Below, in pieces: positions 1,837 to 64,000 of a stretch of DNA of 64,000 nucleotides. The notes beneath the pieces were generated by a model. It saw nothing but the letters and a program-made list of their open reading frames with translations. It was not told where the DNA came from and made no database searches. The stretch is from Moniliella sp. 'wahieum' (lineage: Eukaryota). The stretch spans positions 1,178,001 to 1,242,000 of the forward strand of contig RSEE01000002.1 in NCBI GenBank assembly GCA_003971905.1. The letters run 5' to 3'. Position numbers and translations under genes: made by a program. Positions within the stretch are counted from its first letter, which is position 1. The number at the start of each line of letters is the position of its first letter.

Positions 1837-1950
1837 TTGAAGCTTGAGACTTGAGAAGCTTGAAGCTTGAGATCTCTGATAGGTGATTCTGGGATCTGAG
1901 ATCTTGAGATGATCAATCAGATTCAGAGGATCGATGAGATGATCAAATTT
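1837..1950. repeat. Cluster of 7-bp palindrome-core repeats (AAGCTTG, AGATCT, ATCGAT)
   Basis: gaagcttgaagcttgagatct at 1855-1875, followed by gatctgagatcttgagatgatc and gatcgatgagatgatc. Confidence 0.8.
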
Positions 1951-2237
1951 CAAACCTCGTATAGCAATCGTCTGTGGGAATGCAGGGCGCTCTGGGCCAG
2001 TGTTTGGCTGAACGGGGAACGTCGGCCGATGAGCTTCTCAGCGGTCAGCGCGCCAGCCTTGAAGAACCAGCGAGTCAAGGCACTGGAGAGGCTTTCCTTT
2101 ATCGTGCGCGTGTATTTTGGAAAAGGGGATGCGTTGATGGCGTTTGTGTGTGGGGATGTCTGTCAATGGCATGTGTGATACGTGGTGGCAGACTCGATGA
2201 CACGATGATGTTTTGAGACAGGCAGCGACAATATGAT

Positions 2238-2281
2238 CATCATGCATCATGCATCATGCATCATGCATCATGCATCATGCA
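2238..2281. repeat. (ATGCATC)n heptamer microsatellite, about 6 copies
   Basis: catcatgcatcatgcatcatgcatcatgcatcatgcatcatgca read directly. Confidence 0.95.
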
Positions 2282-2726
2282 GTATCCGTCAATTCAACAA
2301 CTCTAGATGACTATAGATGTGGATCTGTCCATGTAATTCCATCATGATAAGCGTGCCTGGCCGGGTCGGTTACATTGGCCAAGGCGCCTTAGGCAGTAGG
2401 CCTTGTTGATTATCACCATTTTCCCCTTATTTGTCCAATTTGGCCTCCAAAGCCTCAGGCCTCACGCCTATACTCCGTCGGCTTGTTCCAACACCACAGT
2501 CTCCTCTAGGGGCAAAAGGCTTTAGGCCTTGACAGCCCTCACCGCGATTGCATTGCCCTCTACATTTCCAGAGGTTCTCCACCGAAATCCTTGGGTCCCT
2601 ACGGTCGTAGAGCATTTTTTTTGGCGCGCACACCCTTTGCACGGTATTACGAACTCGTCTTGCTGTGTTGTGCGCGCAATATCTGTTCCACTCTCCAGCC
2701 AAAGAAAAACAGCATTGCAATATCAA

Positions 2727-2828
2727 CCCTGGCGCAATTGGGGGTCCATTGAAATTCTCAGATCTCAGATCTCAGAACCCCTGGCGCAATTGGGGGTCCA
2801 TTGAAATTCTCAGATCTCAGATCTCAGA
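2727..2828. repeat. 50-bp perfect direct tandem duplication (period 52) ending in (AGATCTC)n
   Basis: ccctggcgcaattgggggtccattgaaattctcagatctcagatctcaga occurs at 2727-2776 and 2779-2828. Confidence 0.95.
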
Positions 2829-3960
2829 GCCTCTGGGGACCCTGCTCGCGAGGATCGGTCGCATGTGCATCACAATGCACAACCGATGACATTTTCTGTG
2901 GTGTGGTGTTTATTACGTGTACGTGTGCATACGCGTTACGCGCTTAACTACACTGTGATTACGCGTTTTCATCAAATGGCGCTGATGCAGGTCATCAGTC
3001 CTAACCAGCAACCCTAGTCCCACGAGGGACTACACACACGTGTGGCTGTTGTGAGGACTTTTGTAGGCATTGGGGTGGCTTGTGGGCTATACGACCTTCA
3101 CGGGCGCGTTGACTGTTCTCAAGTTTTTGGGCTATCCAGTTGTTTCATCGTTGATTTCCTCAACTCTCTGACTTTGGGGTGGAGGCACCGCGGTTATACC
3201 ATCCTTAGTTGGGGTCGCGCAACAAAACGCGCATTTTCCCACACCACACACAATGGGGTTGTCATTTGGGAGGCACACATATCTGGCACCCGCGGCGGGG
3301 TTAAACAATACATTTATGCGGCTCTCCTTGAAGACGCTTTTCAAGCTTCAAGCTTCAACGCTTCGAGGACGTCTTCGATCTCTCCAAAGGGCCCCACCCT
3401 CTGGTATCCTGGGAGTACTGATTACACACTGAGTTCAATACTGAGTATAGACTTTTTGACTATGCTGCCACCCACAACACCCGTCCGTGTCATTGAAAAA
3501 CCATGGAATGCCCCTCTGCGGTGTTGCCCTTCACACGGTAAAGATGAACTGGGCTTGAGCTTGAACTACGTTTGAACCTCGAACCAGTGGGTCTTCCAGG
3601 TCTTCCCCGCCGAGCTGCAGGGTGGCAGCCTGTGGTTTGTTGCCACAGGCTGCCGCTGACCAGGGCGGAGGCCCGACCTCGTGCATATATATAGCCACCC
3701 ACAGCCCTCCCTGGTCTGAAACCTGCCCTGTTCACTACTGAGTAACTGAGTATTCAACTGAATACTGGCTGCATGACGTGCCACTGCGTACACTCAGTAG
3801 TCACTACCAGCGCTCCCTCCCCGCACGGGCAGCCCCACACGCCCATGCCCAATCGGGATCTCTTACTCCACATCACACATGCATCACAGTTCTGCTAGAA
3901 TGGCCTCATCTTTTCTCCACGGTTTTGCCACAAGCAGACCATGCACAGGTTATGCATTAC

Positions 3961-4039
3961 GCTGGCCGTGTAGGTCATGCTGGTCGTGTACGTCTTGCTG
4001 ATCGTGTACGTCATGATGGTCGTGTAGGTCATGCTAGTC
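3961..4039. repeat. 18-bp minisatellite, 4+ degenerate copies
   Basis: gctggccgtgtaggtcat / gctggtcgtgtacgtctt / gctgatcgtgtacgtcat / gatggtcgtgtaggtcat / gctagtc. Confidence 0.9.
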
Positions 4040-6643
4040 ACTAGTCACATGACGCAGGTCATGCATGTCATGCAGGTCGGCCATGCTTGTCATGCCGGTC
4101 ATGCACACACGGCACTGATCTCAAGCGTATATCTAGGAGGGTGTGCTATATGCACTCTCGGCCAATGAGATCGATGACCTCTCTGACTGTGTGGCTTTCA
4201 GAGCGTCTCTGTGGGACCATTGATACGTTGTCGCGTTGTCCCCGTTGTACCTAGTTTATGATACGTTGTTGTTGAGACACACACACGAAGGACTTGAAGC
4301 TTGAAGCTTGAAGTCGATGAGACATGGACCTTAGATCTCATCTGGCACGGAACCGGGTAACGGACTTTTTGGCTCTTCCAGGCTCTCTGTCTTGGATCTT
4401 GCACCTCTTTCTCCCGACACTATCCAAACCAACTGCTAAGTGAGCCTATTGGCCACGGCTCCTTGGTTTTCCCATCCATCCATGCATCCCGGGACGCTGA
4501 CGCTGACCACGGCTCACACATCGCATCGAGTGGCGCAGTGCGAGGTGAGAGGAAGTTCACTAAGGCCTGAGGAAGGCAGATACGCGATAGATGCACTACT
4601 GCGTATTAGATACCGCGGCGGCTATTATGCTCTCGCCGAGCGCTGACGCGTCACCGTGGCGCCGCGGCCCGAGAAAGAGATTGAAAGCTCAATGCACTGT
4701 TCCATTTGAAGCTTGGAGCTTCAAAGAGCGCATCATGCATCACCTACTTCAAGAGCTCCAAGCTTCAAGCCTTCAGAAGGCTTTGCATGTTACAGTTCGT
4801 GGCCTGGCGCCGCACCCAAAAGCCCATCGGGTTTAGGTCGGGCAGCCGAGTTGCCGTCTGGCGCCTTCCTCGGTAAATCGGCGTTAGGCACCATATACAC
4901 GCGCTCGGTTTTAATAGAGCGCGTTTCTTTTTTCCCACCCTTAAAAGCTTTGTAAATGCAATGACCACAGCATATGATTAGCTAGTACGGTACTAAAACG
5001 CCATCTATTCGGTTCTCGTGGTGGATGAACGAGTCTGTTGGTCGAAGTGGTTCTCGTGTGCCCCTGCCTAATCGTAATCAGAGCTACAGATTTGAGTCGA
5101 GTTCGACGCGTTCGGAGGTATCTGGTCAAGATTCGCAATGTTTAATGGCGTGTCACTAGTCACTGGCAAGGAGAAGGATATCGCATCGCACCTGGCGGGT
5201 TTGAAACAAACGAGGTGTGGACTGCGTGGAGAGCTGGTCTCGGTTTTAATACCAACTACGACATTCGTGATCGATGGCAAAGACACACGCATCCTATTTC
5301 TCCTTGTTGGGAAGCGAGGAGTGGCATGTGGCGTTTAATTTTCCCGGGGAACTGCATAATGCGGGATGGTGAAGAATCATTTCCATGATATGCAGACGGT
5401 GCATAATTCCCGCCTGGTATCCGTGAGATGCATTTGGCGTATTTGACGGAGCGGGCGTGTCAATGGAAGGCAGTGTCAGCCATTGGGTTCTTCACGATGG
5501 CGCGGTGCACCGCGCTCGCGTGGCTGATGTTGGTCTCATTTCGAAAACAGCAGTCAGTAATGTCCAACGGTCCATGTCAAAAATGTCAACGAGCAGAAAA
5601 ATCAGAGGCAGGCCCGAGGCCTTCCAAACTCTACAACTGGGTCACCAGTCACCGGTCAGGGGCACGGGGCGACCGCAGCCATCCTGCTCTCATCTACCTG
5701 GCTGCCCCCTGCCGTCCGTGGGTTCCCCGGCCGGGATGTCAGCGGCAATGCCCAGCTCTTGCTCGCGGGCCGGGGGCATGGCCCACACGATGTGTGATGA
5801 CATGAACATGTGACGCGACTTTGGCCGAGGCCGTTCGTTCGTCACGCCGATGACCGAGAGCATCATGATCGATGATCGAGGATGGATGATCGATGACCGC
5901 GATGGCCACAGTGTTCGGCGTTCGAGGGCGGAGGACCGGTGCGTGTCCTGCCAGAGTCGCGAGCACGGCCGCGTGATGCGGGACGCGTGCCCAGATGGCC
6001 TCTTCGGTGACCGGTGACCAGTGACCGGATGATCGAAATGATCGGAGCAGCAGAGACGCATGACGCTCACCGGTGGGGCCGGTCAGGCTGACCGAGAACC
6101 AATGACCAATCAGTCATCACATTTGCCTCCTCCGAATCAGCGGTTGTGCATCACGCATGGGGCGCCTGATCCCGGTCAGGCGTCGTCTGTCGGCTGCCCA
6201 GGACACGCTGGGGCCTGACTGGTCCCGTGCCCCGCCGCCGGGTGGTCCACGGAGAGCGCGTGTGTGCCGGCCATATTTGGTGCTAACGAGGATAAGCTAC
6301 TCCCACGGGGTAGAAAACTGCATATATCGCAGCCCGCCCCACCCTCCCAGCCGCCGGCCGCCCCCACCTCCTGCCTCCCGTTCTGCTTCCCAGACGCTCC
6401 ACGAGAATTTCGTCGGGCCTGTGCTCATTGGATTGTCTCGCTTCCCTCCCTCTACACCCCTTCATCCGTGTCGCCCTCGCCCTCGCCCTCGCCCGCGCTA
6501 TTAGGCCATGTCTTGTTCCCCGTCCGTGCGCGCCACCCGCCGTCTCTGGCCCATCTCTCCACTCAACTTCACTCTGCCTCCAGCAGCTCCGACAGTCTAT
6601 CCACACCTGACACCCTTGCCAACGCATCCACTCCCCCACCTCG

Positions 6644-7745: not shown

Positions 7746-8528
7746 GCCCGCCTCCTTGCTTTACCCATCTGGCTGCACCCCAATGCTCGCCAGGCTTATC
7801 TAGGTTTGTCATACAGTCGTGTTGTCCATGGCAAGCGCGAGGCCCAACCCTGTTTGTCCACTATTCCGCTATTCTCGTTGCCGTTGGTTGGAGCCTCACG
7901 GACTCGGGTCTGCGACGCAATTCCCCATGCATGCGCATCGTTTTGGGCACGGTCGCGCAATGAAGGGTGGAGGGAGCCGGCGGTCAGGCTGAAGCTGGTC
8001 CAACTGGTCAAGCGTCTAGGTTGTCAAAGAGCATCATAAACACGATATCTCTGAAGCCCCTTTCGATGCGTGCTGCGCCTGCCACCCTATGTCATGTGGA
8101 TCACCTCGTACCAAGCCGTTTGCTTTGGGTCCTCATCGATCATCGTTGGTCGGACTCTTTCCATTCCAACTAATAAGGCCAACCTTCCAGGGAACAAGGG
8201 AAGACCTGAGGCCAGATACCTGATACACTGATAGGATGGCTCCAGTTGTCCGCGTCACGAAAACGAACGAACCCGAGGAGACCTGTGTGGTCTCAATTCA
8301 AATTGTTCCCAGATCGATGATCTTGTACTTTTAGTGCTTCTTTGCCTACGACTAGATGCGTCTTCTCCACTTCTGATTTGATCCTGAGGCCTGATCGATT
8401 GATCCAAGTAGTTAGATAGATGCTGCTGGTTTGTTAGCCTCGGCGTTGCCGTTGTGGCTTAGTGCACCCCTTTCCATTCATCTTCGTGCGCCTCTTTTGG
8501 GCAATGTTGGCCTCAATGCTATTGAGCA

Positions 8529-8936
8529 TCAAGCTTCAAGCTTCAAACAGTATGACATGTGACCTGTGACATGTGACATGGGACACGTGACAGGGGCGCC
8601 AAGCATGCATATTGAGCACTGAGTCTCAGTACTTTTGTGCTTCCTGCCACCGGGATCAGCAGGCCTGAGCGCCTGAGCCAAGCCCTCCGGCCTCAGGCTG
8701 AGGTACCAGCCTGTTGCTTGTCCCAGCGTGGGGCCTGTATATACACGTTGAACGTGACGCGTGAGCGTGAACTTTGAACTTGAACTGAACGTTGAATTGA
8801 ACCATTTGCTTTGGATTTGCAAGGCTTAGGATCTAAGATCTAACCCAGGTATAGGTCCGCACACTGATTTGGCATTAGTGCATTACGCGTTACGCGTTAC
8901 GCCTCAGGCACCTGTCTCGGCGCCAAGCTTGGCGCC
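8529..8936. repeat. Dense cluster of palindrome-core heptamer arrays plus an 18-bp perfect palindrome
   Basis: (AAGCTTC)2 at 8529; TGA-CATG-TGA-CCTG-TGA-CATG-TGA-CATG at 8553-8580; AGGCCT-type units at 8660-8700; AACGTT-type units at 8745-8800; TTA-CGCG-TTA-CGCG-TTA at 8883; ggcgccaagcttggcgcc at 8919-8936. Confidence 0.85.
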
Positions 8937-10201
8937 AGGCGGGGCAACGGGCTCGTTGCTTCCCGCGGTACGCGGTGAGTCAGCTGGTCAGCCAACGCAT
9001 GTCATCGTGTCGTTGAGAGGTGTCATCGACGTCAGCGTCATTGATCATCTCAATCATCGGACCGACATGTATCATGACTAGTGACTCATGCAACTCACAC
9101 CATCAATATTCAATCGAATCAATCATGGACCATCCTCGTCGCCCTGTCGGCCACATGCAGAGAGAGAAGAGGCGGGGGCATGATCGATAATCGATACCAT
9201 GTAACAGCCAATCACGCTGCCAACCTGAGAGCTTCGCAGTCGACCCAACCAGCCGTCTCACGAATTTATATATCCCCCCATGCCCCGCCACCTCTGCTCT
9301 GCGACTGTCTTCTCTATTGCATCATGCATCATCCTTCAACTTTCAAGCCCACCCATCAAAGATCGACGTGTGCCGTATACTTAACCTGCCTCTCACGTGT
9401 GTGACCTGCGATACACAACAGTGTGAGGGGGAGAGAAGAGAGGCCAGGGCGTACAAGCAGTTTTTGGGGGGTGGCTATTACGTACCGGCCAAAACACACT
9501 CCGACCACCACCTGTTTGTGCATTGTAAAAGGCCATCCAATGGAAGGAACACACTGACAAAAAAATTAGGCGCAAGTATACAATCTCCTGTTGTGAAATG
9601 TGTGCGGGATGGTCTACAGGGAGGTCACGTTTTCAGCCCTGGCGCAGGGACGCTTGCTATTCACGTTATGCTAAATGACACTACCAATCAGCCAAGGCGT
9701 CTCGCGGGTACTACCCAGTTCAGACATGATACGAAGAAAGGAGCGGACGTTTAATACTGTTTAGGCTGCTGCTGCTCCCATGCTGGGATAAAGGTAGGTG
9801 GTACTCTGGGAGACAGCATCCACAGAACAATCAATCACGCAAGCAAGGGGGCCATCCGTTGTTTGCCTCACACAATTAGAGCTCGACAAGCTATTTCGGG
9901 AGATACAGGTACGAGAATCAACAATCTTAAACAGACAGGTATATCACAGTGGTGAACGAGTCTAAACGCACGGTCGAGGCGTGTGAATGATAGGGTAGGG
10001 GCGAAAGGGAGTCAAGAAGAGAGGTAGGAACAAAAGGAACTGTCTTATGAGGCCTGAGGTTCAGGCTCAAGCCTGATCGATAATCACCTGTTGAAGAGGA
10101 AGCTAAATTACGGTGCAACGATCCATCCTTAACGCTTCCACGGGATTTCTTGCCCTTCGTCCGCCAGACCCAGACGGTTCTTTCCCTTTTGGATGAACGG
10201 C

Positions 10202-12858: not shown

Positions 12859-13735
12859 GGAGCATAAGCAATGGTTCGGACGTCAAAGCCATGTTCAGCG
12901 TCGGGTGGGGGGAGGCGGTGTCGACAGAGCAGAGAGCGTGGAAGAAAAGAAGAACTCTAGTATATATAGTAACGGGGTGTGGGGCGTGCGCGCGGTAGTC
13001 TGAGCGGGAGAGGGAAGAGGGGCTAGCGTTGTGGTTGGAGAGACGAGACCGGGGCAAGCATGAGGGCGTGAGAGCGGCTGGTATTGAGGGTGTCTTTCAG
13101 GCGAGGCACATGACTAGATGCTGCTGTGGAAGGGTTATGTCCGCTGTTGTCACATGTCAACCGCATCAAATGCAAAATGCCGCTTAGTAGCTCACGCTGC
13201 ACAGATCCGTGTGATATGAGGCGGTAGCAAACACCTGGGCCGGGTCGGTCGAGCAGGCATATAGAAGTGGGTTAGATGGATGCGTAGACATTGTCATCAT
13301 TGGCACATTGTACTGAGTGCGGCATGCACAATGGCAGAGCCGTCAGTGTGGGTCTATACCAGGAGTAGCGCTTCGGGGGAAGCATATATAGCTGTGACCA
13401 AAGAGAGCAGGGGAAAGTAGATCCAGTCTACTACATACAAAACAGATGCTAGATCAGGGAAGAGACTGATGATGGCAGGGGACGTGGAGGGACACTTTTC
13501 TTTTGGGTGCATTCTCGGCCCTGTCACCTACCATGGGCTCCCACCTGGTTCGTACAACTGTTTTCCTTTGGCACAGAATGCTCACAGTGCACCTATACTC
13601 CATCTTCTCCTGGGATAGATAAGCCAAAAAATCGGTTCTTGTGCTCAAGCATTAACAGATCCTGGTAAATGTCTGTAAGCTGCTGTTTCGGCGGAGCTTT
13701 GGCAGCTGCTGAGCACTTGTTTAGCCAAGCATGGA

Positions 13736-15169: not shown

Positions 15170-16412
15170 TGTTTCCGTTGGTGGTGGTGGGGAGGCAAGA
15201 GATGCGGTGGGACACTCGGCCTGTGGCCATGTGGTGAGCGTTTTGCCCAGCGGCTCCTGTAGTCTGGTGTGACATGTGACCTGTGACGCGGAGATCCGCC
15301 TCGCGCCGGCTGCCTGCGCCTTTGGGGCATTTTTATACGTTCGCTTTTCCCTCTCATCTCTCCCAATCGATCCCGCGATCCCGCTTCGGCATTCCTCCGG
15401 AGGCCCTTCCTAGCTCTTTCAGCCAGTGGGCCACGGGACATGTGCCAGCTGAACTTGGACTTTTGACACTCTGCCAGCGGCTACGCATGGCGTAACGCTG
15501 CCTCGGTGCCTGCACCTGAACTCATACTACTCCCAGTAGTTAATAAGAACTACCCCACACGCAACTGAAGGGCGCCGCGTCTCATACGCCCCACACTTGC
15601 CCCTTTTGCTGCACACAGGATGCGTGGCGCGTGACACACGATTAATCCCACATCAGGGATCGCTCATAAGCGATGATCGATGATCGATGATCGATCTAAT
15701 CGATATTCATGGATCCATCCGCTTGTCCGACACGCTCTTCTCTGTGTCGATGCATGCGGTCGATGGCTCAATCTCACACATCGGTTTGCCCTTTCCGATT
15801 GACATGCTCCGATGTATTCACGAGCGAGACTGGCAACCTGGCCCCGCCCGCGTCCTGCCAGCCTGGTTGTGAGGACTTCCGTGCTAAACCGGCCTATAGA
15901 GCCTTCGTCCAGTCAAGGATATGTCGTTGCGGGGACTGTTCGTAAGGACAGTGCCAGAGTGATACAGGCTGTTTCTCCTATCCCGGCTCTCAACAGTGTA
16001 GTGCGGTTCCGCCTCTCTGGCCAAGAGGCGAAGCCACTGCATGGAGGGTTTGGTTCCGATTCCTGGCAGTCACTCTTTTCCGGGCCATTTCATCCGGGTA
16101 TAGCATTCTATCATCACAGAAGGGACTCATCCGTTCAGGTCCCCCTGGTCATGGTTGGGAAAGGACGAAAGGGTGTGTGCTGTTTCCAAGAAACGCACAA
16201 CTTGGTCCCCTCCAATTCAGTCGCGCGTCCTTCTTGGTAGACGGACAACTATACCAGTGGATGATCCACTTCTAGTGTTCGCCAAAGATATGGTGCCCAC
16301 CGGACCCACGTAGTGGTGGTGGGGATGCTTTCGTTATACGGCTAAAAGGGTGGCCCACAAGGGGTTCCCAAGCATGGTCAACATGAGCACATCGTATAGC
16401 ACAAAACGAGAA

Positions 16413-18096: not shown

Positions 18097-19562
18097 ATGA
18101 TAGTGGTGGTGGGGGGGTGAGGGGGGGGGGTGGTGAGGTTCAAGTGGGAAGACAAGGACGAGGATAAACAGGGCGAGGCCTAAGGCCTATAAGGCCTACG
18201 GTGAGGGACCGAGCAATCAGGGACGAGTTCATGGCGGGACCCATTTGCGGCCAAAGAGCGGCTGGGCGCAGTATGTCTTGCTGTTTCAGGCAGCGCGGGG
18301 GGGGCAACAGAGAAAACCGAGGTGGCAAGAGGGAACGATTCAGAATGCAGTTGAGGAATGAATTGCTGGGGCCCGCTGGCCTTCTGCGCTGGCTGCCTGT
18401 GGGGCTACTGTGTTTTAAGTGAGGGCGTGCAGGACGTTTTGATGCTGGTAATGACGCTGACGCTGACGATGATGAGACTGGGCGCTGTGAGGCGCTCAGC
18501 AGATGGGGCGCCGGGGGGCTGGTGCTCTATAATCCACTAGCCACTGCACCCAGTCGGCTCTCCTGTCGACCGCCGGCGATAGCGGTGGCCGCGGGCCGGC
18601 CTACCATGCAACACGCCAGTATACGAGGCGGTGGCGGGCGCACGGACGTCAGCGCCAAACACGAGCTGACCGGTGATGTACGGCGTTGGATGCATGATGC
18701 TCCCTGAGGCCTGAGGCTCAGCGAGGCGCTGCACCTGAGCGACTGAAGAGGCTCTTGGGGAAGTGGGCGCAAGGGGCGCAGCATGGGGACAGTGTACCCC
18801 AACCCAGGGTCCTCCATGCTGCATGCTGCATGCACGCAGGCCAAATTGAATGTGATACTGCGCACAATGGTCCACTGCCGGGGATCTAAGGTGGGCTGTG
18901 CGGTGGGAAGCCGGTATGCGCGCCACCATCTCCAGAGCTAGGTATGTATTCGCAGCGCACCTGCGGAAGCTGCGAAGGCCCAGGACGATGCGGGCGTGGG
19001 CATCACCGAGACCATCATATACGAGACGGCATTGGCGAGTTTGACTTTTACTGATCCGAATAAGCAGGCGGTAGGCGAATGCCATGATGTGGTTGGCCGC
19101 AGCGCGTGCGAACAAGCGGGGGATATGGGATCGGACTGAATACACAAACCGGTGTCTGCGTCGGGGGCCTCAGCTTGTTATAGACACTGGGGTGACCAGG
19201 TAGACTGGTAGACCACAGCAGAGCAGCCACAGCACGCAGCAACCGGCAGGCGTGCCTCTCCAGTGGCGTTGATGCATGATGTATGATACCTTGTGTGTGA
19301 CGTCACGTGTCACATGTGTGTGAAAATACCCCCACTCTGACCAGATCTGGGGTAGAATCAACCTGTTGAAACGTTCACGCGGTTCTCCGATTCTGTGAAG
19401 CTATCCGGTGGATTCTACTTGGACTGCGACATGGTCTCTGTCTGAGGCCTCACCTGAGGCCCCTGAATATTGAATCCCCTGCCTTTCCCAAGAAGAAGAT
19501 TCGACGGGAGTCAGTTACACTGCCATCATTACTCAGTACTCATTCACCTCCACGCCTCCACA

Positions 19563-20876
19563 ATGCCTCGAGGTGTCTGTTGCGGGCTGGGTGCGTATCT
19601 CTGTGGGACCACAGTTGAACAGACAACAGGCGCTAACCTCTCTCCCCATCCTCTCTCATCGTATGGACCCATCTCGTCGCAGGTTCTTTTCTCATGTGCG
19701 CCGCCATGGTGCTCATGATCTTTGTCAATGTTGGCCAGATCGGCACCGGCCCAGTCGAGCGTCACATCTATCTCGCTCACCTCAATCTCACTGGGTTTGC
19801 TACCAGCCTTGGAGATTCCAACGAGATACGACAAATTTTTGCCTCCAATCAGTCTTCCCGCTCCTCGCCGGCAACGGAATACGGTACAACTATTGGTGGG
19901 GAATGTACAGCGTCTGCGGGAGCGATGCAGGCCTGGTAGCTCCAACCGATCTTGTTCTTCCAACGAGTTTGGCCACCCGCTCGAGCCAGCGCAGACGCTG
20001 GGTGCCGATGATGGGTCGAATGGCAGCTTGAGTACCGCCTTGGCCCTATCTTTTCGAATGAAGACTCATCCAATGTCACCAATCCGGGAAAGCTAACCAA
20101 ATTTACCAATCAACCTGGCTTGCCAACCTTTCTCGCGCTACTTTTACCTTTCTTTATTAGCACCATCTTGGCTGGCGTGTCCTGGGTCCTGAGTTTGCTC
20201 AACGGGGAGCGTTTGCTCTCTTTCTCTCTTCCTCGGTTGCCTCTTACTGTTGTGCTACTCGGCATCGGTGGACAATTTGGACGGCAATGGTGGGCATCCT
20301 TCGTGATGAGCTCAAATCCGCTCGGATTAACAAGCTGTTGATCTTGAGTACGGAAATGCCGTCTGGCTCAGCTGGGCTGCGTTTAGTTGTGCGCTTGTCA
20401 GCATCTTTCCTCTTCTTGTGGCCGCTTGCGAACCAGGCCGATCTTGCTATGGTCTTCGAAGGAGGAAGTACGAGCCTACCCCTCTCGATCCGGACTGGGA
20501 CGTCGAAGCACGACACGTTACCACACACTCTACTTCCCTTTCCACCCGGCCACCAACTCGGTCGGCAAGCCCTCCCCGGGAGCTATCAACGTGGAGAGGC
20601 GTATGATACTGCCTATGCCCAAACTGCTTACCCAGCCTCTACTCCTAGACCGGCTTCGCCTCCGCCTCCGCCTCCAAAGTCATTCCCTGCCCCGGTTGTG
20701 ACGCAGGCCTATGTTCCCGCCGGACCAATTCAGTCCGGTCGCAGACCAATGCAGTCTCAGCGTACACGCGGTACGAGGCGCGGGACGCGCGGGACGCGCA
20801 GGCCCAAAGTGCTCGATACGATCGTTATGATCGCCAAGATGTTCGCTATGATCCTCGGTTCGATGACAACTATTGA
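19563..20876 (+). CDS. SUR7/PalI-family multi-pass membrane protein, intron 19591-19682
   Basis: Spliced MPRGVCCGLGSFLMCAAMVLMIFVNVGQ (TM1), extracellular loop GIRYNYWWGMYSVCG...FGHPLEP, further TM segments (FLALLLPFFISTILAGVSWVL; VVRLSASFLFLW) and a Pro/Tyr-rich tail ending RYDPRFDDNY*. Frameshifted. Confidence 0.72.
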
Positions 20877-28974: not shown

Positions 28975-30189
28975 GGTGGTGGTGTGCGCCCAGGGGGAGG
29001 CGGTGGGGGAGGGATATAGGGGGCGGGAAACATGTATATACGCGCAAGCCATGCTGAATGGCCGCCGACAGCAGGCAGCGCACAGCCAGCGCAGCCCAGC
29101 GCCCCGCCCCGATAGTGTGTATACCCGCTACATAGCGTCCACACTTTATCCTCGCCTCGCAAACGCATTGTATACCGAGTACCGACGGAGGCAGCCGCCT
29201 CTTCGATGCGCCGGCGGCTGCTCATCGCCTGCAGATGGATGATCAGCCACCTGGACTTACTGTGTCCATCTCAGAGCCCAGAGGGCATGCCGGAACTCCG
29301 GGGGTCTCGGTCAGCCGTGCTGTCGCTCTGCCGCTCGGCTGCTGGCACGGTGTGCGTCTCACACGTGCTTCCATAGCACCCCCGCTGCGGAAGCAGGCCG
29401 AGGGCAGCAACAACCTCGCAAGAGCCGCCCATGCGAACGCCATGCCATCCTCTCTTCCCTATCTCGAATCATCCATCTTCACCCTTCAATCCACCGCCTA
29501 CTACGTACTTGCAGACAGCCCCCCCCGCCTACGCGCACACAGACACAGTCCACCCCTGGCCACCCCCTCCCATCTCCTTTCGCTAGGAACGCGTGTTGCC
29601 TTTCGGTACATGTGTATACCACAGCCCGCACATGCGCCTCCGGCCGTCGCTCGCCAATCTCCATCGGATGGTGTCCATCATCCGGCACCCTCTCTTTGGG
29701 GGCTGCTTTTTTATTGTGCTTGATAGCAGAGAGACCCATCCGAGCCACACTCTCGCTAAACACACTCATCCTAGCTGTGTGGGAAGAGATATAAGGAGGA
29801 CCGAATGCAGGATGCGTATTGCATGGAGATCACCTTATCGCGTCTTTCCTGCTGCGATAGGTCAGGGCGATCAGGGTGGCTCTGCCCTCTGGGGCCGGAG
29901 ACAACCCCCGAACCTCTCCAAGGAATAAGAGACATCATAATGACGGATGCCTCCCTCCACTTGCGTTATAGTAAACGCCTTCGAAGCAATTTTATGGTGG
30001 GAACATGGGCGTTTCCGGCTGCATTCTTAATGACGCCTCCCTCCCATATAACTGCCCACAATCCTCGCTCTCCTCAGGCCTCAGACCTCATACTTCCTCA
30101 ATGACCCAAATCAAAGTAACTTCGCCTACAAAAACAGGTAGCAGTGAGTGCCGTGTGATCATGGTCGACCTCGCATTACGGTAACCAGT

Positions 30190-30403
30190 GCGCGCGTGAG
30201 CGTGAGGGTGAGCGCGCGAGCAGGCCTGAGCGCCTGAGCCTGAGCACATCCATCACCCTAGTCACGCGAGTCACAGCTAAGCTAGACTGCTTCAGGAGCT
30301 GAGTAAAGGCTGGTTCCACAATGCTACTAAGTATGATTAAGTAAGGCCCTACGTAATCTATGCACTGCCGTGACGCGTGACGCGTGATCGATAATCGATG
30401 ATC
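30190..30403. repeat. Palindrome-core heptamer cluster, including a phase-conserving chimeric array
   Basis: TGA-CGCG-TGA-CGCG-TGA-TCGA-TAA-TCGA-TGA at 30371-30401; aggcctgagcgcctgagcctgagc near 30222-30245. Confidence 0.85.
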
Positions 30404-30429
30404 TGTCGAGCTGGCGAGCAGATACGTTG

Positions 30430-32920: not shown

Positions 32921-33114
32921 CTTAAGCTGTGCTACCGGCGGAAAACTCGGTAAAAGAGGCCTGAGAACCGCCAATGCAGTACCAGGTAACGGGTAGCAGG
33001 TAACCGGTAAACGGGGTCACAGTGACGGTTAAACAGGTTCAATATGATTCAACGGCATTCAATATCCAACCTTAATTTGAAGCATTTTAGCGCACGCCGA
33101 CAGCGGCCTGTGGC

Positions 33115-34570: not shown

Positions 34571-35167
34571 GTACTAGTTACTGAAGGGCCTGTGGCCTCC
34601 GCGGGAGGAGAGAGGTATGCGATGGTTGAGACGACGTCTACGTATCCGTCGCGCCCGATGGACACGGCAGCCAACAATCATCTGAAGTATCACAGCGGAT
34701 GGGACATGCGCCGAGTGACGGTGACTGGTGACGCGTGACGACGGACTCGGTGACTGGAACGGTGGCGGGGAAGAGGAGGACAGGGAGCAGACAGGGAGAC
34801 GAGGGAGACTGGCGCTGTGCCTCTGTGCGCAGGCCGCGGTTAGCCAGGCACGCCCTGGCACGCCGTTGTAGCTCCGCTCGGCACTGCGGCAGAGGGCGAC
34901 TAGCTTCGCGTGGGCCGCATGTCACTCTTTCTTATAAGCAAGCCCGCCTTCTCTCGGCCCTCCCCGACCGCCCTTTCTTCCCCTTCCCCACCGTTTCACC
35001 TTCGACCGTCAACCCCCCACACCATCCCCACCACTGGTTGGTGCCCGAGAGCCGGCTATCTCCTCCCGTTCCTCCCATCACCTCTCTCCAGCCGGTCTGG
35101 CCTTCCTTCTCACCCCTTCATCCTCTGGCCTGGAGCCTATACGCCGGTCGTATTCCTCATCATCATC

Positions 35168-41233: not shown

Positions 41234-42997
41234 CTTGCGATCCGGGGTGTTCGCGTTCGTGGAATGTGTGGCCGAGCGCGTTTTCCTCTCGGAATCGCAC
41301 CGCTCTTCATTTTTGCGTCGTGGGGGGGGATAAAAACCCTTTTTGGCGTGGCGTGTGGGGCGGATAAAACGGGTGCAGTCGCTCGATCGACTGTTGCCCC
41401 CCCCCTCACCTCTTTCTTCCACACACCTCATATTTGGGGCAGAGCATAAGACGTGGACGCGGCCACCTTCCATCCCGGCCCCCGTTACCGTCAACACACC
41501 AATGGCCGTTCGAAACCTACACTACTTTGTTTCCCCTCTGCATGCCCCTCTTTCACCCCCCCCCCCCCTCCGTTCTCCAATGATATGAAACCCACGTATG
41601 CGCGTCCCCCCCACCCATGTTGTAATCAATGTTGGTGCGACGGAGAAGTAGTCGGACGGTCCAAGGTGCAGGGGTGGCCGGTTGATGGGGAGTGTCTGTT
41701 GGATGTGTTGACGCGAAGGTCTGTAGCGGAGGGTGACCGTGGGGTACGCACGCAGGGGTGCGGGACGGGGCGGACGGTCAAGGATTTTCTCCCCAGCTGA
41801 CGCACTGATGAGAGCGGGAGAAAGGAGCGCCAGACAGCCACTATTCTCGCCACGATTGTCCCGGACGGGGGGTCGGAGTAGAGCGCAAGCACCTATCTCT
41901 GCATCAATGCATGTCCCCGTCGAGATGGACTGGGAGATGCTGGCCGCGTCTTGTGTGTTGCGTTGCGTTGCATGAATGACATGAGCATGAGGCCAACAAA
42001 GCATGGCTGGGCGGCCTGTGGGGGCTGCGGGTAGGGTTAGTCGGCGTGGGTGCGGGCGGGCGGTGGGCAGAGGCGCGGGCCGGGGGGAAGGTGAGTAGTG
42101 TGAATGGAAGGACACATGAAACAGCGTACGCTCTGGAGCGGCCAGAAACCGAGGGTGGGGGCTGGATGGTGGCCCTGTGCCCACTTGCGTTGCTGCGGCC
42201 CTGGCCTGCGCTGGCCGGGCTGGCTAGGCACCGCGACTCATGTACATGGCACGCACCAGGTACCATTGATTGGGTCACCGCATCCCGGCCGGCACCGGAC
42301 ATGAAGAATGAACGTTGGTTTTCGGCGCGTCCGGCCCAGGGCGTAGTAGGGCGTACCCGCAAAGCAGCGGGGGGCACTGGAGGGCTCGGGTGTGCGCGCT
42401 GGTTCGCCGTTTCTGTGGGGGCAGTGGCTGGGGCAGGACAAGCGCCACGCTGTGCTGCACGATGATCGATGAGTTCGGTCAACCGATGATCAATGAACAC
42501 ACGCCGAGAATGCATTCAATCTATCGACTATCGATGACCACATGCCGAATGCACGCCCGCCAGAGCGCTCTCCATGAAACTCGCCGAGAATGTGGCGCTT
42601 GGGGCCGTGGTCCGGTTGTCCGGTCTTGTCCGGTCCTGCTCCGTCCTGCCGTGCTGCTCCGGCCGGCTGCCCCCTGCCGACCCTGTCCCTGCAGCACCAC
42701 GTGGGTACCCGCAAAGATGCATCACATGATGCATGATGTTCGATGATCGATCGGTACGCTGACTAGGAGGAGTCGCTCGTGGGCGGCAGCCACAATACAC
42801 AGCCCCAGTGCCTGCCTCCCGCACCGCCCTGGTGCCTGGCTGGTGGCTGCAGGCGCATGCGAGCGTTCGTGTTAAAAAGTAGTGCGCAGCGTCGATGCCC
42901 GCCTTGCGCCCCGCCCACCTCCTTCTTCGTCCCCTCCACCACCTCCATCTTTCTTCTCGCTGTTTTTTTTTATCCTTCCCATCCCACGTCCCTCGCC

Positions 42998-52256: not shown

Positions 52257-52356
52257 ATCGGACGACCGACCCCCCTGTTTGGCAGAACCCATGCATCTTT
52301 TGGTCCATCCCCATCTTGCTTCTTTCCGCATACCCATAGACCTACACATTCATCAT

Positions 52357-52392
52357 GCTCAGGCTCAGGCTCAGGCTCAGGCTCCGGCTCAG
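52357..52392. repeat. (GCTCAG)n hexamer repeat between the convergent NDUFV1 and MetAP 3' ends
   Basis: gctcaggctcaggctcaggctcaggctccggctcag. Confidence 0.85.
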
Positions 52393-56492: not shown

Positions 56493-56532
<40 letters not shown>

Positions 56533-57622: not shown

Positions 57623-58219
57623 CTTGGCAGTCGCACGCTTGGCAAGATGGCGGTGGAGAGAAAAAAAAGTATCCACGGCGGCTGTTCCTACGCTTTTGGC
57701 GGGTTGCGGGGGCGGGCCATCCTGACGAAAGCTGCGGCGCCCGCAATAAAATTGCACCATTAGGGTTGCCTGCCAGGGTTGCCCGGTGCTGATTTGCAAT
57801 TTTACCTGCCAAGCCCTCCACTCAGCTCAGGCGGCGCATGAGCATCACACGTCACGCGTCACGGTGACGAGTCGGCGACTGCAATCGCTGATCACATTGA
57901 ATACCGTTGGAGCGGCCGCTAACACTCACTGAGCGAGCGCAGCAGCCACTTGGCACTACGCAAAAGGCAAGAACAACTGGCATGTCCCCTGGCAAACCTC
58001 AGCTCAGCGCCCTCATTTTTCCAGCGCGCCAGGTAGACTGTCGGCTACCAGGTTGCCCCTCTGACGCTATGCACAATGATCTGAGTGCGTCTCAATCATG
58101 CCATCTCGTACATCCACCTTCTGCTGCCTCCGAAGTCCAGCAGCACCCAGCTCGGCCTTCCCCAGGCAGATGCTGCTGGCCGGGGGCGCGGACGGAGGAG
58201 GAATGCAGCGTATTACGCG

Positions 58220-58871
58220 TTACGGTTGCTTGCTGTGCACCGTTTCGGTAGGCGGGATGAGTTCCCGGGCGGCGGCATGGTACCCACAGCCCGAGCAGAT
58301 GCGAAGCTGGGGCTCCTCGTTCCATTGGGTAATGTGCGGCTTGAGTTGGGTGCCCAAGTCGGTGCAGTAGAAGCTGGCCTTGCGGATCAACGTGGGTTCC
58401 GCGTGCGCTTTCGTGTTGGGGCAGTACCACACGCAGCTCATCTGGGTTCATGGGGTTAGCCTTGGGCGGCTCGGGCGCTGGACCATCCAAGGGAGGTAGG
58501 GGGGAGGGGGGGGTTAGGCACGCACCGTTCTGTCCCTCGGGACGGGTGCGCTCGACGACGAGGCCAACGGTGTTTTCGAAGCGGATGGGCGAGTGGGCCG
58601 TGTTGGCCGGAAGCATAAACATCTCCCCTTCCTTAATTGGCACATCTTTGAACTTGCCATCCTCAATGATCTTGAGCAGCATGTCGCCCTGGACCTGGTA
58701 AAAGAACTCCTCGGTGGGCTGGAAGTGGTAGTCGCTGCGCTGGTTCGGCCCGCCAACGACCATGACCGTGTAGTCCTGCGAGCGGAAGAGGCAAAAGTTG
58801 CCCACCGGAGGCGCCAGACGCTCCTTGTTCTCCTCCACCCAGCGGGGGAAGTTGAGTGGCGGAATGACCAT
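58220..58871 (-). CDS. BNA1: 3-hydroxyanthranilate 3,4-dioxygenase, intron 58442-58525
   Basis: PPLNFPRWVEENKERLAPPVGN, VMVVGGPNQRSDYH..TEEFFYQ, EGEMFMLPANTAHSPIR, WYCPN, FYCTDLGTQLK and RICSGCG. Confidence 0.96.
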
Positions 58872-59669: not shown

Positions 59670-60921
59670 TTAAAGCGTGAGCTTCTTGGGCTGCTCCCAG
59701 GTGAACTCGGGGCGGCCAAAGTGGCCATAAGAGGCAGTGGAGCGGTAAATGGGCTTTTGGAGCTCGAGGTGGTGCACAATCACACCCGGCTTGAGGGTTA
59801 AAGTTCTTGCGCACAATGTCCACCAGCTCGGCATCCGTCTTGGTCGAGGTGCGTACGACTCGACCAAGCCGACAGCGGTTCGGCCACACCAATCGCGTAC
59901 GAAAGCTGCACCAACGCCCGGCGGGCCAGACCGGCAGCAACGAGCGACTTGGCCACCCAACGCGCCGTGTAGGGCCGAGCGGTCCACCTTGGAAAAGTCC
60001 TTGCCCGAAAACGCACCACCACCGTGCGCGCCCCAGCCTCCGTACGTGTCGACAATGATCTTGCGGCCCGTCAGACCCGCATCGCCCTGAGGGCCGCCAA
60101 TCAAAGCGGCCGGAAGGCTGGATGTGGTAGATGGTGTGCTCGTCAATCAGGTTGGCAGGAATGACCTCCTTGATGATCTTCTCGAGAATCTCGGCGCGCA
60201 GGTGCTCCGTCGTAACCTCGTCCGAGTGCTGGGTCGAGACGACAACCGTGTCCACACGAACGGGCACCACCGCACCGCCATCCTTCTTGTACTGGACCGT
60301 GACCTGGGTCTTGGTGTCGGGACGCAGCCAGGGGAGCGCACCCGTCTTGCGTGCGACCGTCAGCGCACGGTTCAGCTTGTGGGCAAGGGTAAGCGTGAGC
60401 GGCATGAGCTCGGGCGTCTCATCCGTAGCATAGCCAAACATGATGCCCTGGTCGCCGGCACCATGGTCTTCCAACGAACCATGGTCCAGGCCCTGGGCAA
60501 TGTCCGGGCTCTGCTGCTCAATGGCAACCAGAACATTGCACGTCTTGTAGTCAAAGCCCTTGGCGCTGTCGTCGTACCCAATCTCCTTGATCGTGTCGCG
60601 AATGACCTTTTGGTAGTCAATCACCGCCTTGGTCGTGATCTCACCAAAGACCATCACCATGCCCGTCTTGGTCGCCGTCTCGCAAGCAACCTTCGAGTTG
60701 GGGTCCTGGGCGAGGCACGCGTCGAGGATGGCATCGGACACTTGGTCACAGATCTTGTCGGGGTGGCCCTCGCCGACCGACTCGCTAAGCGCAAGAAGGA
60801 ATGGGTTAGGCACGAGGAGAGGAGCGAGCCGGGGCCAGCGCGGGGAGGAAGCGTACGACGTGAAGAGGAAGTGCCCCTCGGGCAGCTTGTGGTTGTGGAA
60901 CGAAACACCGTTGGCAGCCAT
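59670..60921 (-). CDS. SAM2: S-adenosylmethionine synthetase, intron 60785-60856
   Basis: [83 protein letters not shown] and YGHFG..EFTWE. Confidence 0.98.
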
Positions 60922-62762
60922 GGCGCGGGCAGGCGGATGGGCGGGGGGGCGGGAGAGAAGGAGAGAGGGACGGGGGGGGAAGGAAGAGGAGAGAGGCGGT
61001 GAGAAGAAACGTGGGGGGGCTTTTAAAAGCGCCAATTTTTTTCGATTGGATCGCTGGCCACGTGCGGGCAGCTGCTGTGGTTTTTTGCTGCTGGGTGCCG
61101 GCCAGCCAAGCATCTATCCATCCCATCCCGGCCTCGCGCGCGCTCCCGCCACTGCCCCGGCCGCACCACGCCGCACCACGCCGCACCACGCCAGAGCTGC
61201 AACTTTCACCCTTCCGCCCGCCCCGCCGTCCGCCACTGGCCCTGTGCCCGGGGGCGCCCAACCGGCCCATTCCGCCCCTCTGCCCCCGACATCTCCGCGG
61301 CAACTTTCAATGGGAGGGCGCGGCGTTGCACCCGAGCAGGGCCGTGCCGTGCTTTCGGCCTAGGCGCCATGTGCGTCCAAATGGCGTGCTTGGGCATGCC
61401 CAGCAACCAGCAACCCTACCGCAAGCACGCGGGCAACGCGTGAATATTGAATGCCTGCCCGCCCCCCTTATCGGATGCACAGCCTACCCACCTGCCTACC
61501 CGCACCCCACACCCTTGCGGGCCTGCAGATTCAATGTTCAACGTGAACGTTCAACTCGGGCGTCAAATGTTCAAACGCACCCAGCGCAGCGCCGCTGTCT
61601 CCAACGAGGGGGGATGCAGGGTGGTTGGGTTGGCCGCCACAGCCGCCGGCCGCTCTGGCGGAGCAACGGGTGAAATGGACCAGCCCTCGACCAATCATTA
61701 ATCAGCGATCGATGAGCTCCAGTTTTGCCCTCGCAAGCTCAGAGCGGTCAGGTGACCGCCACCGCTCCGCCCCTTCCGCCTCGGCTGACCTGGTCACCCA
61801 GTCACGGCCAGCGCTCAGGCAGAGCCTGGCTGCGTCGGGATGTGGACGGTGTGGATGTCGCTGATGGATGACGCAGGCGGCGGGGGTGGGATGGGCGTGC
61901 GGGCGGGTGGGCACGCTGCGAGCGCAGCGCTCCGGGCAGCTCCCTGCGCCCGTTCCCAACAGCCCACACTGCCCCTGCCCAGCCCCAGCGCGTCAGTACT
62001 CAGTCGGAGCTCAGGCTCTCAGGCACGTGGCCGCGTCTGCGCACTGTGGCGCCCCGCCGGCCCCAGCCGTGCAGCGGAGCGGCGTGGAGCCACACTGGCG
62101 CCGTGCGGCTGCAGCTGCCCTCGGCTGCTCCCCACATTCAGGCTGGCAGGCTGCACGCTGCAAGCTCCAGATCGCAGAGCTTCAGGCTTCGCCCGGAGCC
62201 GGGCAAGCACTGGCGCAGCGCAGTGGCTAGTGGCTAGTGGTTCTGGCCAAGCGAGCGCGGCGCTGCCGGCAGACGGCGCTGGGCCACATTGTGCCCGCTC
62301 CCACGTCACACACCGCGCGGTGCCTGCGCGGTGCCTGCCAGGGCGCACCGCTGCGTGCCGGTCCGCTGCCGCGCCTCGGCACACGCGGGCACGGCGCCAG
62401 TGCAGCCAGGGGGCGGTGACATGTGGCAAGGCGCATGGCATGTGGCATGTGGCACGTGTGATGCAGGCGAGCAGTGTGATGCGTGACGGCCGCCTGACAG
62501 CGCGGCCTCCCCCGGTGAGCCAGTCCCAGTCGTGGCGTCGCGGCGACCGGCGGCTGCTCTGATCGGGATCGCTCAGCCGCTCCTCCCTTGGCGCCAGCGC
62601 CGCCAGGAGACCCCCGCCCGCGTTGGTGCGCGCCAGGCTGCCCAATTGAAACCAAGCCTGCCCGCCTCTCCCCGCTGCCCTTCCGTCTCCCTCGGCCGAC
62701 CCACCACCCGCGTCCTCCGCCCAACCCCCAACCCCCTGCCGCCGCCCGGCGTGAGATTGCAC

Positions 62763-63436
62763 ATGTCCGGCTACCACGCGTACGCGCTGCCCCCCCACTA
62801 TCGCCGCCCCCCGCGCCCGCCGTCGGCCTCGCCACGCCCCACCTGGACGACTGTCTGCTGACCGACCCGCGCCTCGGCCCCTCCCTCCTCTCCTCCCAGC
62901 CCACCTACCGCTCTCTCCCCCCCTGGAGCTCCTCGCCCCCCTCGACCCCAACACCGCCTTTGCCCCCACCTCTGCCCTCGTGCCCCCTCCCCCACCCCAC
63001 CCGGACTGGGCCGCGTCGCCCCCCCCCCAGGCTCGACCTGCCGCGCCCGCGGAGCACATGCCCCCCTCTTCCACATCCCCTCCACCCATGCGCCGCCTGT
63101 CCCGGACGCGCCCCTGTTCGCCTCGCTCGCGCCCGATGTCGTTCCCGCCCCCGCGCCAGGTCCGCTCGCCCACCCGCCCGTCAAGCGAACGCGCACACCC
63201 AAAAGCGCTTGAACAATCCGGCCAAGCAGGACGAGTCTCCACCGCGGCGCAAGCGGCCTTGGTCCCCGTACAATGTGTACATGTCCAAGGCGGTCGCCTT
63301 GGTGCGCGCCCGCCGCGAAGGCATGACCCACAAAGAAGCGTTTGGCATCGCCGCCCATGAATGGCATTTCCACCCGACCAACCCCAAGAAGAAAGCCGAC
63401 GCAGAGGAGACGCCAGCGGCCAACACGTCTGCCTAG
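62763..63436 (+). CDS. Pro-rich protein with a C-terminal YABBY-type HMG-box-like domain
   Basis: RKRPWSPYNVYMSKAVALVRARREGMTHKEAFGIAAHEWHFHPTNPKK resembles the YABBY motif (PSAYNRFIKEEI..IK...PDISHREAFS.AA.NW). The N-terminus is frameshifted. Confidence 0.75.
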
Positions 63437-64000
63437 CCATCTAGCCATGCTGCTCTTCACCCCTCCCCCTCCGCATCCCTCCCTGCCCGCGCGGCCCCCG
63501 CCCCGTATCCTCTTTTTTGCTTCTTGCACACCCGTCGAACGTTGACCTTGAACGTTGACTTTACTCTCCCTCGCCTGGGTCCATCCCCCTCCTGCTCTGT
63601 TCCAGCCGTACATACTGTCTGTGTCCTCTTTGCCTCTTGATGTGGCTCCTGCTTGACCCCACTCATGCCCTATCCCATTGCTGCCGAGACGCTTCAGGCG
63701 GGCTGCACAGCGGGCTCAAGTGACTATACCTAGTCGCATCGTACTCGTACTGCCTTCATAGAGAGGGGCTGCTGGCCTGCCGGCGCAGCATGCATGCAGC
63801 TTTCCCATCCTCTCTCCCCCTCCCCCTGTTATTTGTCCTTGGTTTCGTTTCCCTTCTGCCTATGGAGAAGATCGAATGCGATGCCCATATGGCCCACGTA
63901 TTCCAGCTGTGATGGCTTTCTAAAAACGCGTGGTCTTGCCCAGGATGGCGGCGATAGGAGAACATGGACCCAGACAAAGGCAACCCGGTATAGCAAGTAT

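Follow-up and report, generated by a model that had tools for sequence, protein, structure and literature searches.

We analyzed 64 kb of chromosomal DNA from Moniliella sp. 'wahieum' (contig RSEE01000002.1, positions 1,178,001 to 1,242,000; hereafter the window), a gene-rich stretch of a fungal genome whose intergenic regions carry short repeats with a period of 7 bp, each unit joining a T-N-A trinucleotide (N, any base) to a self-complementary tetramer that we call the core. Pfam matches on long open reading frames (ORFs) identify genes for UBA1, a C2H2 zinc-finger protein, an alpha/beta hydrolase, G6PD, FKS1 glucan synthase, PAT1, profilin, NADH dehydrogenase 51K, an M24 peptidase, ribosomal protein L1, 3-HAO, and SAM synthetase. 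Identity of the G6PD ORF is 78–87% to its nearest proteins overall and 66–70% to those of the nearest named taxa (Tilletiaria, Violaceomyces, Ustilago, and Thecaphora), a similarity that marks the host as a Ustilaginomycotina-like basidiomycete. Rfam and tRNA scans of the window returned a single tRNA, at 46183, and nothing at the repeat arrays.

Palindromic heptamers in the window

A first-pass annotation of this DNA had proposed that the intergenic repeats obey a grammar, T-N-A plus palindromic tetramer, and had suggested a count of palindromic and non-palindromic cores against shuffled sequence. We conducted this count with 100 dinucleotide shuffles as the null model and the pattern T-N-A, four bases, T-N-A, and the grammar was borne out: palindromic cores occur 92 times where 8.0 are expected, whereas non-palindromic cores remain at chance level (112 vs. 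118), so that the palindromic class alone is enriched. Frames with an identical N on both sides (same-N) number 74, with 2.5 expected and a shuffle maximum of 7, compared with 7 frames with complementary N (2.1 expected) and 11 with other combinations of N (3.3 expected). None of the other 15 outer base-pair classes shows an excess of palindromes in the shuffle test. Lag 7 stands alone in a scan of lags 4 to 12 (74 same-N palindromic frames vs. 2.0); its neighbors, lags 6 and 8, give 18 vs. 9.2 and 6 vs. 2.6, respectively. Sorting the same-N lag-7 frames by the number of broken core pairs gives 74 with none (2.5 by chance), 35 with one (about 13), and 21 with two (about 20); with the last class at chance, a stock of non-palindromic T-N-A heptamers that selection could have sifted for palindromic ones is absent.

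Many period-7 arrays are also reported in the window by Tandem Repeats Finder. Exact period-7 runs with two or more copies number 43. A 6-bp palindrome and one further base make up the unit in 28 of them, against a naive chance share of 11%, and 27 of these 28 are of the A....T type, the lone exception being GCATGC+T at 18815 (units are written as palindrome plus spacer base). Reverse-complement symmetry at other periods does not rise above its chance share (30/105 at period 5, 10/61 at period 6, 1/9 at period 8, and 0 at periods 9–12). Hexamer palindromes of the A....T type number 278 in the window and 170 ± 10 in the shuffles, while those with C, G, or T as the outer base are not enriched over the shuffles. 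The palindromic heptamers are thus confirmed as real and far above chance.

The 60 same-N loci use 15 distinct cores, and the earlier argument that one microsatellite could not yield many different cores is supported. Other parts of the description need amendment. Of the 12 G/C-containing cores that the annotation had placed in arrays, 11 are indeed found with two or more copies in a run, but GTAC is confined to single-core loci. The stated absence of A/T-only cores is true of multi-copy tracts and fails for single-core loci, where we find AATT (at 1943), ATAT (at 9103, 19464, and 61441), and TTAA (at 61695). Finally, “tandem arrays” is an inaccurate name for most loci, as 62 of 74 chains hold a single core; nine hold two cores, and one each holds three, four, and five.

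Elementary 12-mers, arrays, and their distribution

A complete list of the exact period-7 tracts built from T-N-A plus a palindromic tetramer comprises 15 tracts of 11 bp, 22 of 12 bp, 11 of 13 bp, 6 of 14 bp, 7 of 15 bp, 3 of 16 bp, and 11 longer ones (up to 44 bp). Seventeen of the 22 12-mers lie in one phase, starting at the T and ending at c2, or the reverse complement of this, where a fraction of 2/7 is expected (p = 3e-6); here c1c2 are the two bases that follow T-N-A, and primes mark complementary bases. The 12-bp mode differs from what random truncation of arrays would produce. Written out, the elementary 12-mer is TNA c1c2 c2'c1' TNA c1c2, with five direct and two inverted bases, and deleting any seven consecutive repeat-consistent bases from it leaves TNA c1c2. 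The asymmetry is visible in the 49 single-core loci, in which an extension of at least 2 nt is found on one side only in 34, on both sides in 6, and on neither in 9. Same-N loci of 12, 13, and 14 bp number 17, 9, and 4, in agreement with the proportions of 0.56 : 0.28 : 0.11 that a 12-bp product with chance extension predicts.

A mirror-image arrangement, in which the inverted junction adjoins the T, occurs only at TGCA or TCGA cores, for which the two readings coincide (14 of 14 matches), and no other combination of direct and inverted copy lengths shows comparable enrichment. The 26 oriented 12- and 13-mers contain 13 different c1c2 dinucleotides, their N is C in 12, G in 12, and T in 2, and no consensus is found in the sequences flanking them. 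Tracts of the direct-plus-inverted form that lack T-N-A are in weak excess (24 vs. roughly 10 expected, from 4.6 + 5.8 in shuffles), which suggests that the requirement for T-N-A is close to strict but may have exceptions. A/T-only cores account for 5 of 26 among the 12-mers and for none of the 27 tracts that measure at least 14 bp (Fisher p = 0.023).

Of 27 multi-copy arrays (Table 1), 20 have G or C as the spacer base and the other 7 have A or T, and the spacer stays constant along an array, with no alternation between N and its complement. The longest period-7 run reaches 6.3 copies, joined head to tail as in a microsatellite. When folded as single-stranded DNA, arrays are predicted to form hairpins of -4 to -14 kcal/mol, with 5-bp stems, T-N-A triloops, and a single N.N mismatch at every seventh base.

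Some arrays lie within or beside repeats of other kinds. Both copies of a 52-bp tandem duplication at 2727–2830 (2.1 copies, 98% identity) contain an AGATCT+C array of three units, and an 18-bp repeat at 3961–4039 (4.4 copies, 83% matches) adjoins the ACTAGT+C array. In addition, AGGCCT and two GCCTGAGC units are held in a 22-nt exact repeat that is found in two intergenic regions (8658–8679 and 30219–30240) with no homology past its ends; this repeat may represent a regulatory site common to both regions, or similar repeats that coincide by chance.

To locate the loci relative to genes we defined coding DNA by Pfam-supported ORFs (13.5 kb), because codon-bias and period-3 Fourier maps were too noisy to classify it. 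Only 2 of the 60 same-N loci fall in these ORFs (binomial p = 2e-4), and 46 are found in four non-coding stretches, with a combined length of 10 kb, that lie 5' as well as 3' of genes. Clustering of spacer orientation along the window is not significant (runs z -1.4), and a comparison of locus positions with gene strands reveals no consistent orientation. The annotation had pointed to the stop codons that every unit junction creates as a reason why coding sequences are avoided; these stop codons do follow from the genetic code, but they are unneeded as an explanation, since any 7-bp insertion shifts the reading frame. The G+C content changes from ~52–59% at 1–35000 to 60–68% at 40000–64000, and the second half is gene-dense and nearly without heptamer loci.

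The loci are found at several stages of decay. Exact 10-mers number 74 vs. 2.1 in shuffles, their one-substitution neighbors 119 vs. 47.8, and their two-substitution neighbors 484 vs. 498, and the roughly equal excess of perfect and one-off copies suggests that the loci are young or quickly turning over, with little constraint. Breaks in the inner core pair number 27 (6.6 expected) and those in the outer pair 8 (6.5 expected). Many broken cores are one apparent CpG-to-TpG or CpA change away from a palindromic core, for example at 6015, 34350, 36478, 39960, and 57845; these hint at CpG hypermutability, possibly with cytosine methylation, in the host genome. Between 8745 and 8802, TGA recurs every 5–8 bases (TGAACG, TGACGCG, TGAGCG, TGAACTT...), an arrangement that resembles a heptamer array eroded by small indels.

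As a control, we scanned public metagenome contigs for TSA+WGCW arrays (S, G or C; W, A or T), which returned at least 121 loci, 80 of them with flanks. Among the matches listed, palindromic seeds (AGCT, 41; TGCA, 24) are accompanied by 45 seeds of two non-palindromic classes and 11 mixed ones. Outside the seeds, in 661,083 bp of metagenome DNA, the ratio of palindromic to non-palindromic cores is 0.063, the chance value of 1/16. Same-N palindromic and non-palindromic cores number 34 vs. 682 in the metagenome flanks and 74 vs. 56 in the window, and we conclude from these comparisons that the pattern belongs to this organism and not to heptamer repeats generally. Matches to the 12-mer number 14 in the flanks and 88 in the 64 kb, and the multi-core grammar appears in none of the 80 metagenome loci with flanks.

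Table 1. Heptamer-rich stretches, multi-copy arrays, and 12-mers in the window
Feature	Positions	Strand
Dense non-coding cluster, UBA1 3' end to C2H2 zinc-finger gene; 17 same-N loci (3.9 per kb)	1700..6100	unstranded
Dense non-coding cluster downstream of C2H2 gene; 13 loci (5.9 per kb)	8000..10200	unstranded
Cluster upstream of G6PD; 5 loci	18100..19600	unstranded
Dense non-coding cluster; 11 loci (5.8 per kb)	32900..34800	unstranded
Array AAGCTT+G, 2.3 copies	1855..1870	unstranded
Longest array, ATGCAT+C, 6.3 exact copies; predicted fold with 5-bp stems, TNA triloops, N.N mismatches	2238..2281	unstranded
Array AGATCT+C, 3 copies, in copy 1 of 52-bp tandem duplication	2756..2776	unstranded
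Array AGATCT+C, 3 copies, in copy 2 of 52-bp tandem duplication	2808..2828	unstranded
Array AAGCTT+C	3340..3358	unstranded
Array ACTAGT+C	4034..4048	unstranded
Array AAGCTT+G, 3 copies	4293..4313	unstranded
Array ATCGAT+G	5865..5879	unstranded
Array ACCGGT+G	6005..6019	unstranded
Array AAGCTT+C	8529..8546	unstranded
Decaying ACATGT+G array, substitutions in cores; exact part 8565–8580	8549..8596	unstranded
Array AGATCT+A	8830..8843	unstranded
Array ACGCGT+T	8883..8902	unstranded
Array ATCGAT+A	9183..9196	unstranded
Array ATGCAT+C	9318..9332	unstranded
Array ATCGAT+G, 3.6 copies	15671..15695	unstranded
Array AGGCCT+A	18176..18189	unstranded
Array AGGCCT+G	18703..18717	unstranded
Array GCATGC+T, sole symmetric array outside the T-N-A rule (C-N-G type)	18815..18833	unstranded
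In-phase mixed chain, two CGCG units then two TCGA units; spacers G,G,G,A,G	30369..30403	unstranded
Array AACGTT+T	33124..33137	unstranded
Array AACGTT+T	33458..33472	unstranded
Array ACGCGT+C	34021..34036	unstranded
Array ACCGGT+T, 3 copies	34124..34144	unstranded
Array AGCGCT+G	34365..34379	unstranded
Array AACGTT+G, 3.3 copies	34448..34470	unstranded
Array ATGCAT+G	42725..42738	unstranded
Array ACGCGT+C	57850..57863	unstranded
12-mer, core AGCT	1836..1847	-
12-mer, A/T-only core AATT	1943..1954	+
12-mer, core GGCC	2453..2464	-
12-mer, core TGCA	4731..4742	-
12-mer, core CTAG	5153..5164	+
12-mer, core TCGA	5885..5896	-
12-mer, core TCGA	8133..8144	+
12-mer, core GGCC	8383..8394	-
12-mer, core CGCG	8753..8764	-
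12-mer, core CTAG	9075..9086	+
12-mer, A/T-only core ATAT	9103..9114	+
12-mer, core GGCC	10048..10059	+
12-mer, core CATG	13148..13159	-
12-mer, core CATG, within 5' part of Abhydrolase_3 ORF	15268..15279	-
12-mer, core TGCA	19270..19281	+
12-mer, A/T-only core ATAT	19464..19475	+
12-mer, core GTAC	19531..19542	-
12-mer, core GGCC	30072..30083	-
12-mer, core CCGG, spacer T	32999..33010	-
12-mer, core ACGT	34427..34438	-
12-mer, core CGCG	34729..34740	+
12-mer, core TCGA	42461..42472	-
12-mer, core CGCG, spacer T; within 3-HAO ORF, may be chance	58213..58224	+
12-mer, A/T-only core ATAT	61441..61452	+
12-mer, A/T-only core TTAA	61693..61704	-
12-mer, core GTAC	61993..62004	+

A proposed self-templated origin and its rivals

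The reading that we favor, while judging its chances to be evenly balanced, is that loci of this structure, specificity, phase, location, and decay are the scars of a lineage-specific, local, and self-templated mutational process in non-coding DNA, which would proceed in three stages. In the first stage, seven bases would be gained at 5'-TSA c1c2 to give 5'-TSA c1c2 c2'c1' TSA c1c2, a gain of five direct and two reverse-complement bases (equivalently, four direct and three inverted), such that the two bases flanking TNA would be copied once directly and once inverted to form a new core. A +7 step of this kind makes a 4-bp palindrome between two TSAs whatever c1c2 is, and so would give every palindromic core under one rule; the A....T hexamer palindrome would be a by-product, because T and A are complementary. 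Chemically, the step may be a double template switch or may pass through a flap or mini-hairpin intermediate, in replication or in gap or break repair. The intermediate could be c2'c1'-TSA-c1c2 folded as a 2-bp stem with a T-S-A triloop, and T-S-A may act as the loop of such a mini-hairpin or as a quasi-palindromic site for re-pairing.

In the second stage, the 1.7-copy seeds would lengthen by ordinary replication slippage, a growth that would be favored because looped-out units form hairpins with 4–5-bp stems and T-N-A triloops, and cores without G or C would stay at the seed stage. The constant spacer within arrays points to direct growth by slippage and not to fold-back copying. The mixed chain at 30371 would be the expected product of a fresh +7 event at the terminal TGA of an array. 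The third stage is the observed decay described above, in which point mutation, with its many apparent CpG-to-TpG changes, erodes the loci; on this reading the repeats would be tolerated outside coding sequence only. The annotation had offered two kinds of origin, and this account agrees with one of them, a sequence-independent generative process, here one of self-templating: the core of the 12-mer corresponds to the flanking two bases in direct plus inverted copy.

A stronger version of the same idea, possible in our view but on the whole doubtful, holds that a dedicated T-S-A-anchored machine (a nickase, a transposase-derived nuclease, or a repair-polymerase route) writes 7-bp palindrome units into intergenic DNA at about the rate of point substitution per site. 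Such a machine would provide hairpin-prone repeats and a steady stream of new short palindromic motifs near genes.

Several points weigh against a self-templated origin. All counts come from one 64-kb window, and the “insertion” is read from structure alone and is unpolarized. No route that we devised accounts for T-S-A, as C-N-G, G-N-C, and A-N-T meet the same pairing logic, and none shows how a polymerase begins the inverted copy without a loop. The tracts of 14–16 bp (16 loci) are spread uniformly over the phases, and those that are longer do not have lengths congruent to 5 mod 7, so these tracts are not simply 12-mers plus whole units; we assume that they are fragments of longer arrays that have decayed. 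Past the tract ends, lag-7 identity is 34%, somewhat over background, which means that some of the “12-mers” are pieces of old arrays. Finally, W spacers are present in 7 of 27 arrays and in 2 of 26 12-mers, and the hairpin z-scores of the arrays are modest (-0.4 to -3.7).

The alternatives differ in how much of this evidence they can accommodate. Ordinary microsatellites with a motif bias, in which any heptamer arises and only reverse-complement-symmetric ones expand through hairpins that escape repair, would explain why the direct repeats of an array are all alike and keep one spacer, why hairpins are predicted for them, why they decay as microsatellites do, and why expansion is never seen for A/T-only cores. 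We nevertheless consider this origin quite improbable: about 2 chance seeds are available per 64 kb, as opposed to 60 loci with 15 cores; random truncation predicts no 12-bp mode in one fixed phase; neither the need for T-N-A nor the restriction to period 7 is predicted, periods 5 and 9 showing nothing; heptamer arrays in metagenomes are little biased (65 palindromic and 45 non-palindromic seeds among the matches listed, with two classes each); and the preponderance of symmetric units among the 43 runs of the window departs from the naive share expected if any unit could arise by chance. An artifact of assembly or sequencing is hardly credible, since the loci, which are short and internal, are surrounded by unique sequence and occur at every stage of decay, they avoid ORFs, one array is present in both copies of the 52-bp duplication, and no artifact generally known produces such a pattern.

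Excision footprints of a hairpin-forming cut-and-paste transposon, combining a 5-bp target duplication (TSA c1c2) with two P nucleotides, would account for the form of the 12-mer, as a direct repeat abutting an inverted dinucleotide is the classical P-nucleotide footprint of hAT and Transib elements and of V(D)J joining; 17 of the 22 12-mers have this fixed-length duplication with its palindromic junction, and the loci are concentrated in a few open intergenic stretches. In hairpin-forming transposases and V(D)J joints, however, such footprints are heterogeneous and two-sided, while here there is a single uniform, one-sided form with no other P lengths and no P nucleotides at the opposite end, and T-S-A would sit off-center in the supposed 5-bp target, an unusual position if the transposase is symmetric. 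Within the window, no transposase domain is found among the Pfam matches, and neither terminal inverted repeats nor a dispersed repeat family beyond the arrays themselves are found; with no flank consensus, the loci do not fit a dispersed MITE-like element either. On this evidence we give the transposon little credence. Selected cis-elements, either cruciform- or hairpin-prone or bound by protein as promoter or boundary marks that read alike on both strands, are also unlikely. The setting of 46 of the 60 loci in four long intergenic stretches beside the zinc-finger gene, G6PD, and another gene would suit them, and three units make 21 bp, which may correspond to about two helical turns. Yet only T.A is constant among the 15 cores, leaving no common recognition sequence; the flanks are direct and not inverted (74 frames with the same N, 7 with complementary N); loci occur both 5' and 3' of genes without significant clustering of orientation; the majority are 1.7-copy 12-mers in one asymmetric phase; and one-mutation derivatives match the perfect copies in excess, which suggests little constraint. 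The same features, together with the lack of a flank consensus and a neutral-like decay, leave the spaced half-site protein code, the other origin proposed in the annotation, unsupported.

Four further candidates were dropped: a lesion or deamination affecting the C of TCA in the strand under repair (the oriented 12-mers have C as N in 12 cases and G in 12), footprints assembled from the ends of transposons (the core copies flanking bases), elongation by fold-back (N stays constant instead of alternating), and arrays of bZIP, HSF, or MCB sites (the cores vary).

Among known systems, heptanucleotide microsatellites share with these repeats the exact head-to-tail 7-bp copies, the shortness of the arrays, decay by point mutation, and a non-coding location. 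They differ in that the unit here is non-arbitrary (a palindrome plus one base in 28 of 43 runs, with T-N-A in 27 of those 28), 12-mers of 1.7 copies in a single phase make up most loci, and the metagenome controls show little or no bias. Quasi-palindrome template-switch mutations, reportedly described by Ripley and by Loytynoja and Goldman, are likewise self-templated and are said to make or perfect short inverted repeats during replication; such events copy a nearby inverted segment, and are not known to be tied to a single trinucleotide, to give a fixed 7-bp gain, or to seed tandem arrays. According to Ogata and Miura, thermophilic polymerases reportedly elongate palindromic tandem repeats in vitro via hairpins, so that short symmetric repeats grow as they do here, but fold-back would alternate N, which is constant in our arrays. 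The cyanobacterial HIP1 also represents a lineage-specific, genome-wide excess of a short palindrome, in contrast a single fixed 8-mer that is not tandem and is present in genes too.

Small inverted triplications linked to FEN1/Rad27, the nearest published process considered here, offer a comparison at a larger scale. For these, the published account proposes two template switches with flap fold-back at Okazaki-fragment maturation, and later loss by slippage over hairpins (PMC13334657). The direct-inverted-direct arrangement built there from local sequence has its counterpart here in TNA c1c2 / c2'c1' / TNA c1c2, with dimensions of 148/160/148 bp and a 30-bp spacer there (PMC13334657) and of 5/2/5 bases without a spacer in the window. 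The triplications also differ from the present loci, in which the inverted portion (2–3 bases) is shorter than the direct one (5) and the event is tied to T-S-A. A full-text literature search, judged at the level of search results, returned no description of palindromic heptamer repeats in fungi. We class the repeats as a variant of the microsatellite and of the templated insertion, with a distinctive and sharply defined signature. To our knowledge, standard repeat surveys end at hexamers and would overlook a heptamer class.

If the +7 event is real, it would constitute a clean and countable mutational signature, comprising a T-S-A anchor with five direct and two inverted bases, and would show the birth of palindromes and tandem repeats out of non-repetitive DNA. 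The origin of proto-microsatellites is a long-standing question, and their seeds are directly visible here. Such a signature would indicate an unusual property of replication or repair in one fungal lineage, which comparative genomics could trace to the loss or gain of a gene.

Other features of the window

Three further sequence features accompany the heptamer loci. An inverted repeat of ~230 bp and roughly 75% identity (37800–38030 and 54110–54340, on opposite strands) surrounds ~16 kb of housekeeping genes. A C19 tract (22068–22086) and a G18 tract (39612–39629) lie 17.5 kb apart on one strand and surface as an inverted-repeat pair. Hexamer arrays of the TCAGGC or CTCAGG type, which combine T-S-A with G-N-C in up to 12 copies, are found at 35514–35591 and 52353–52392 in stretches with a period-3 signal, and are possibly coding repeats.

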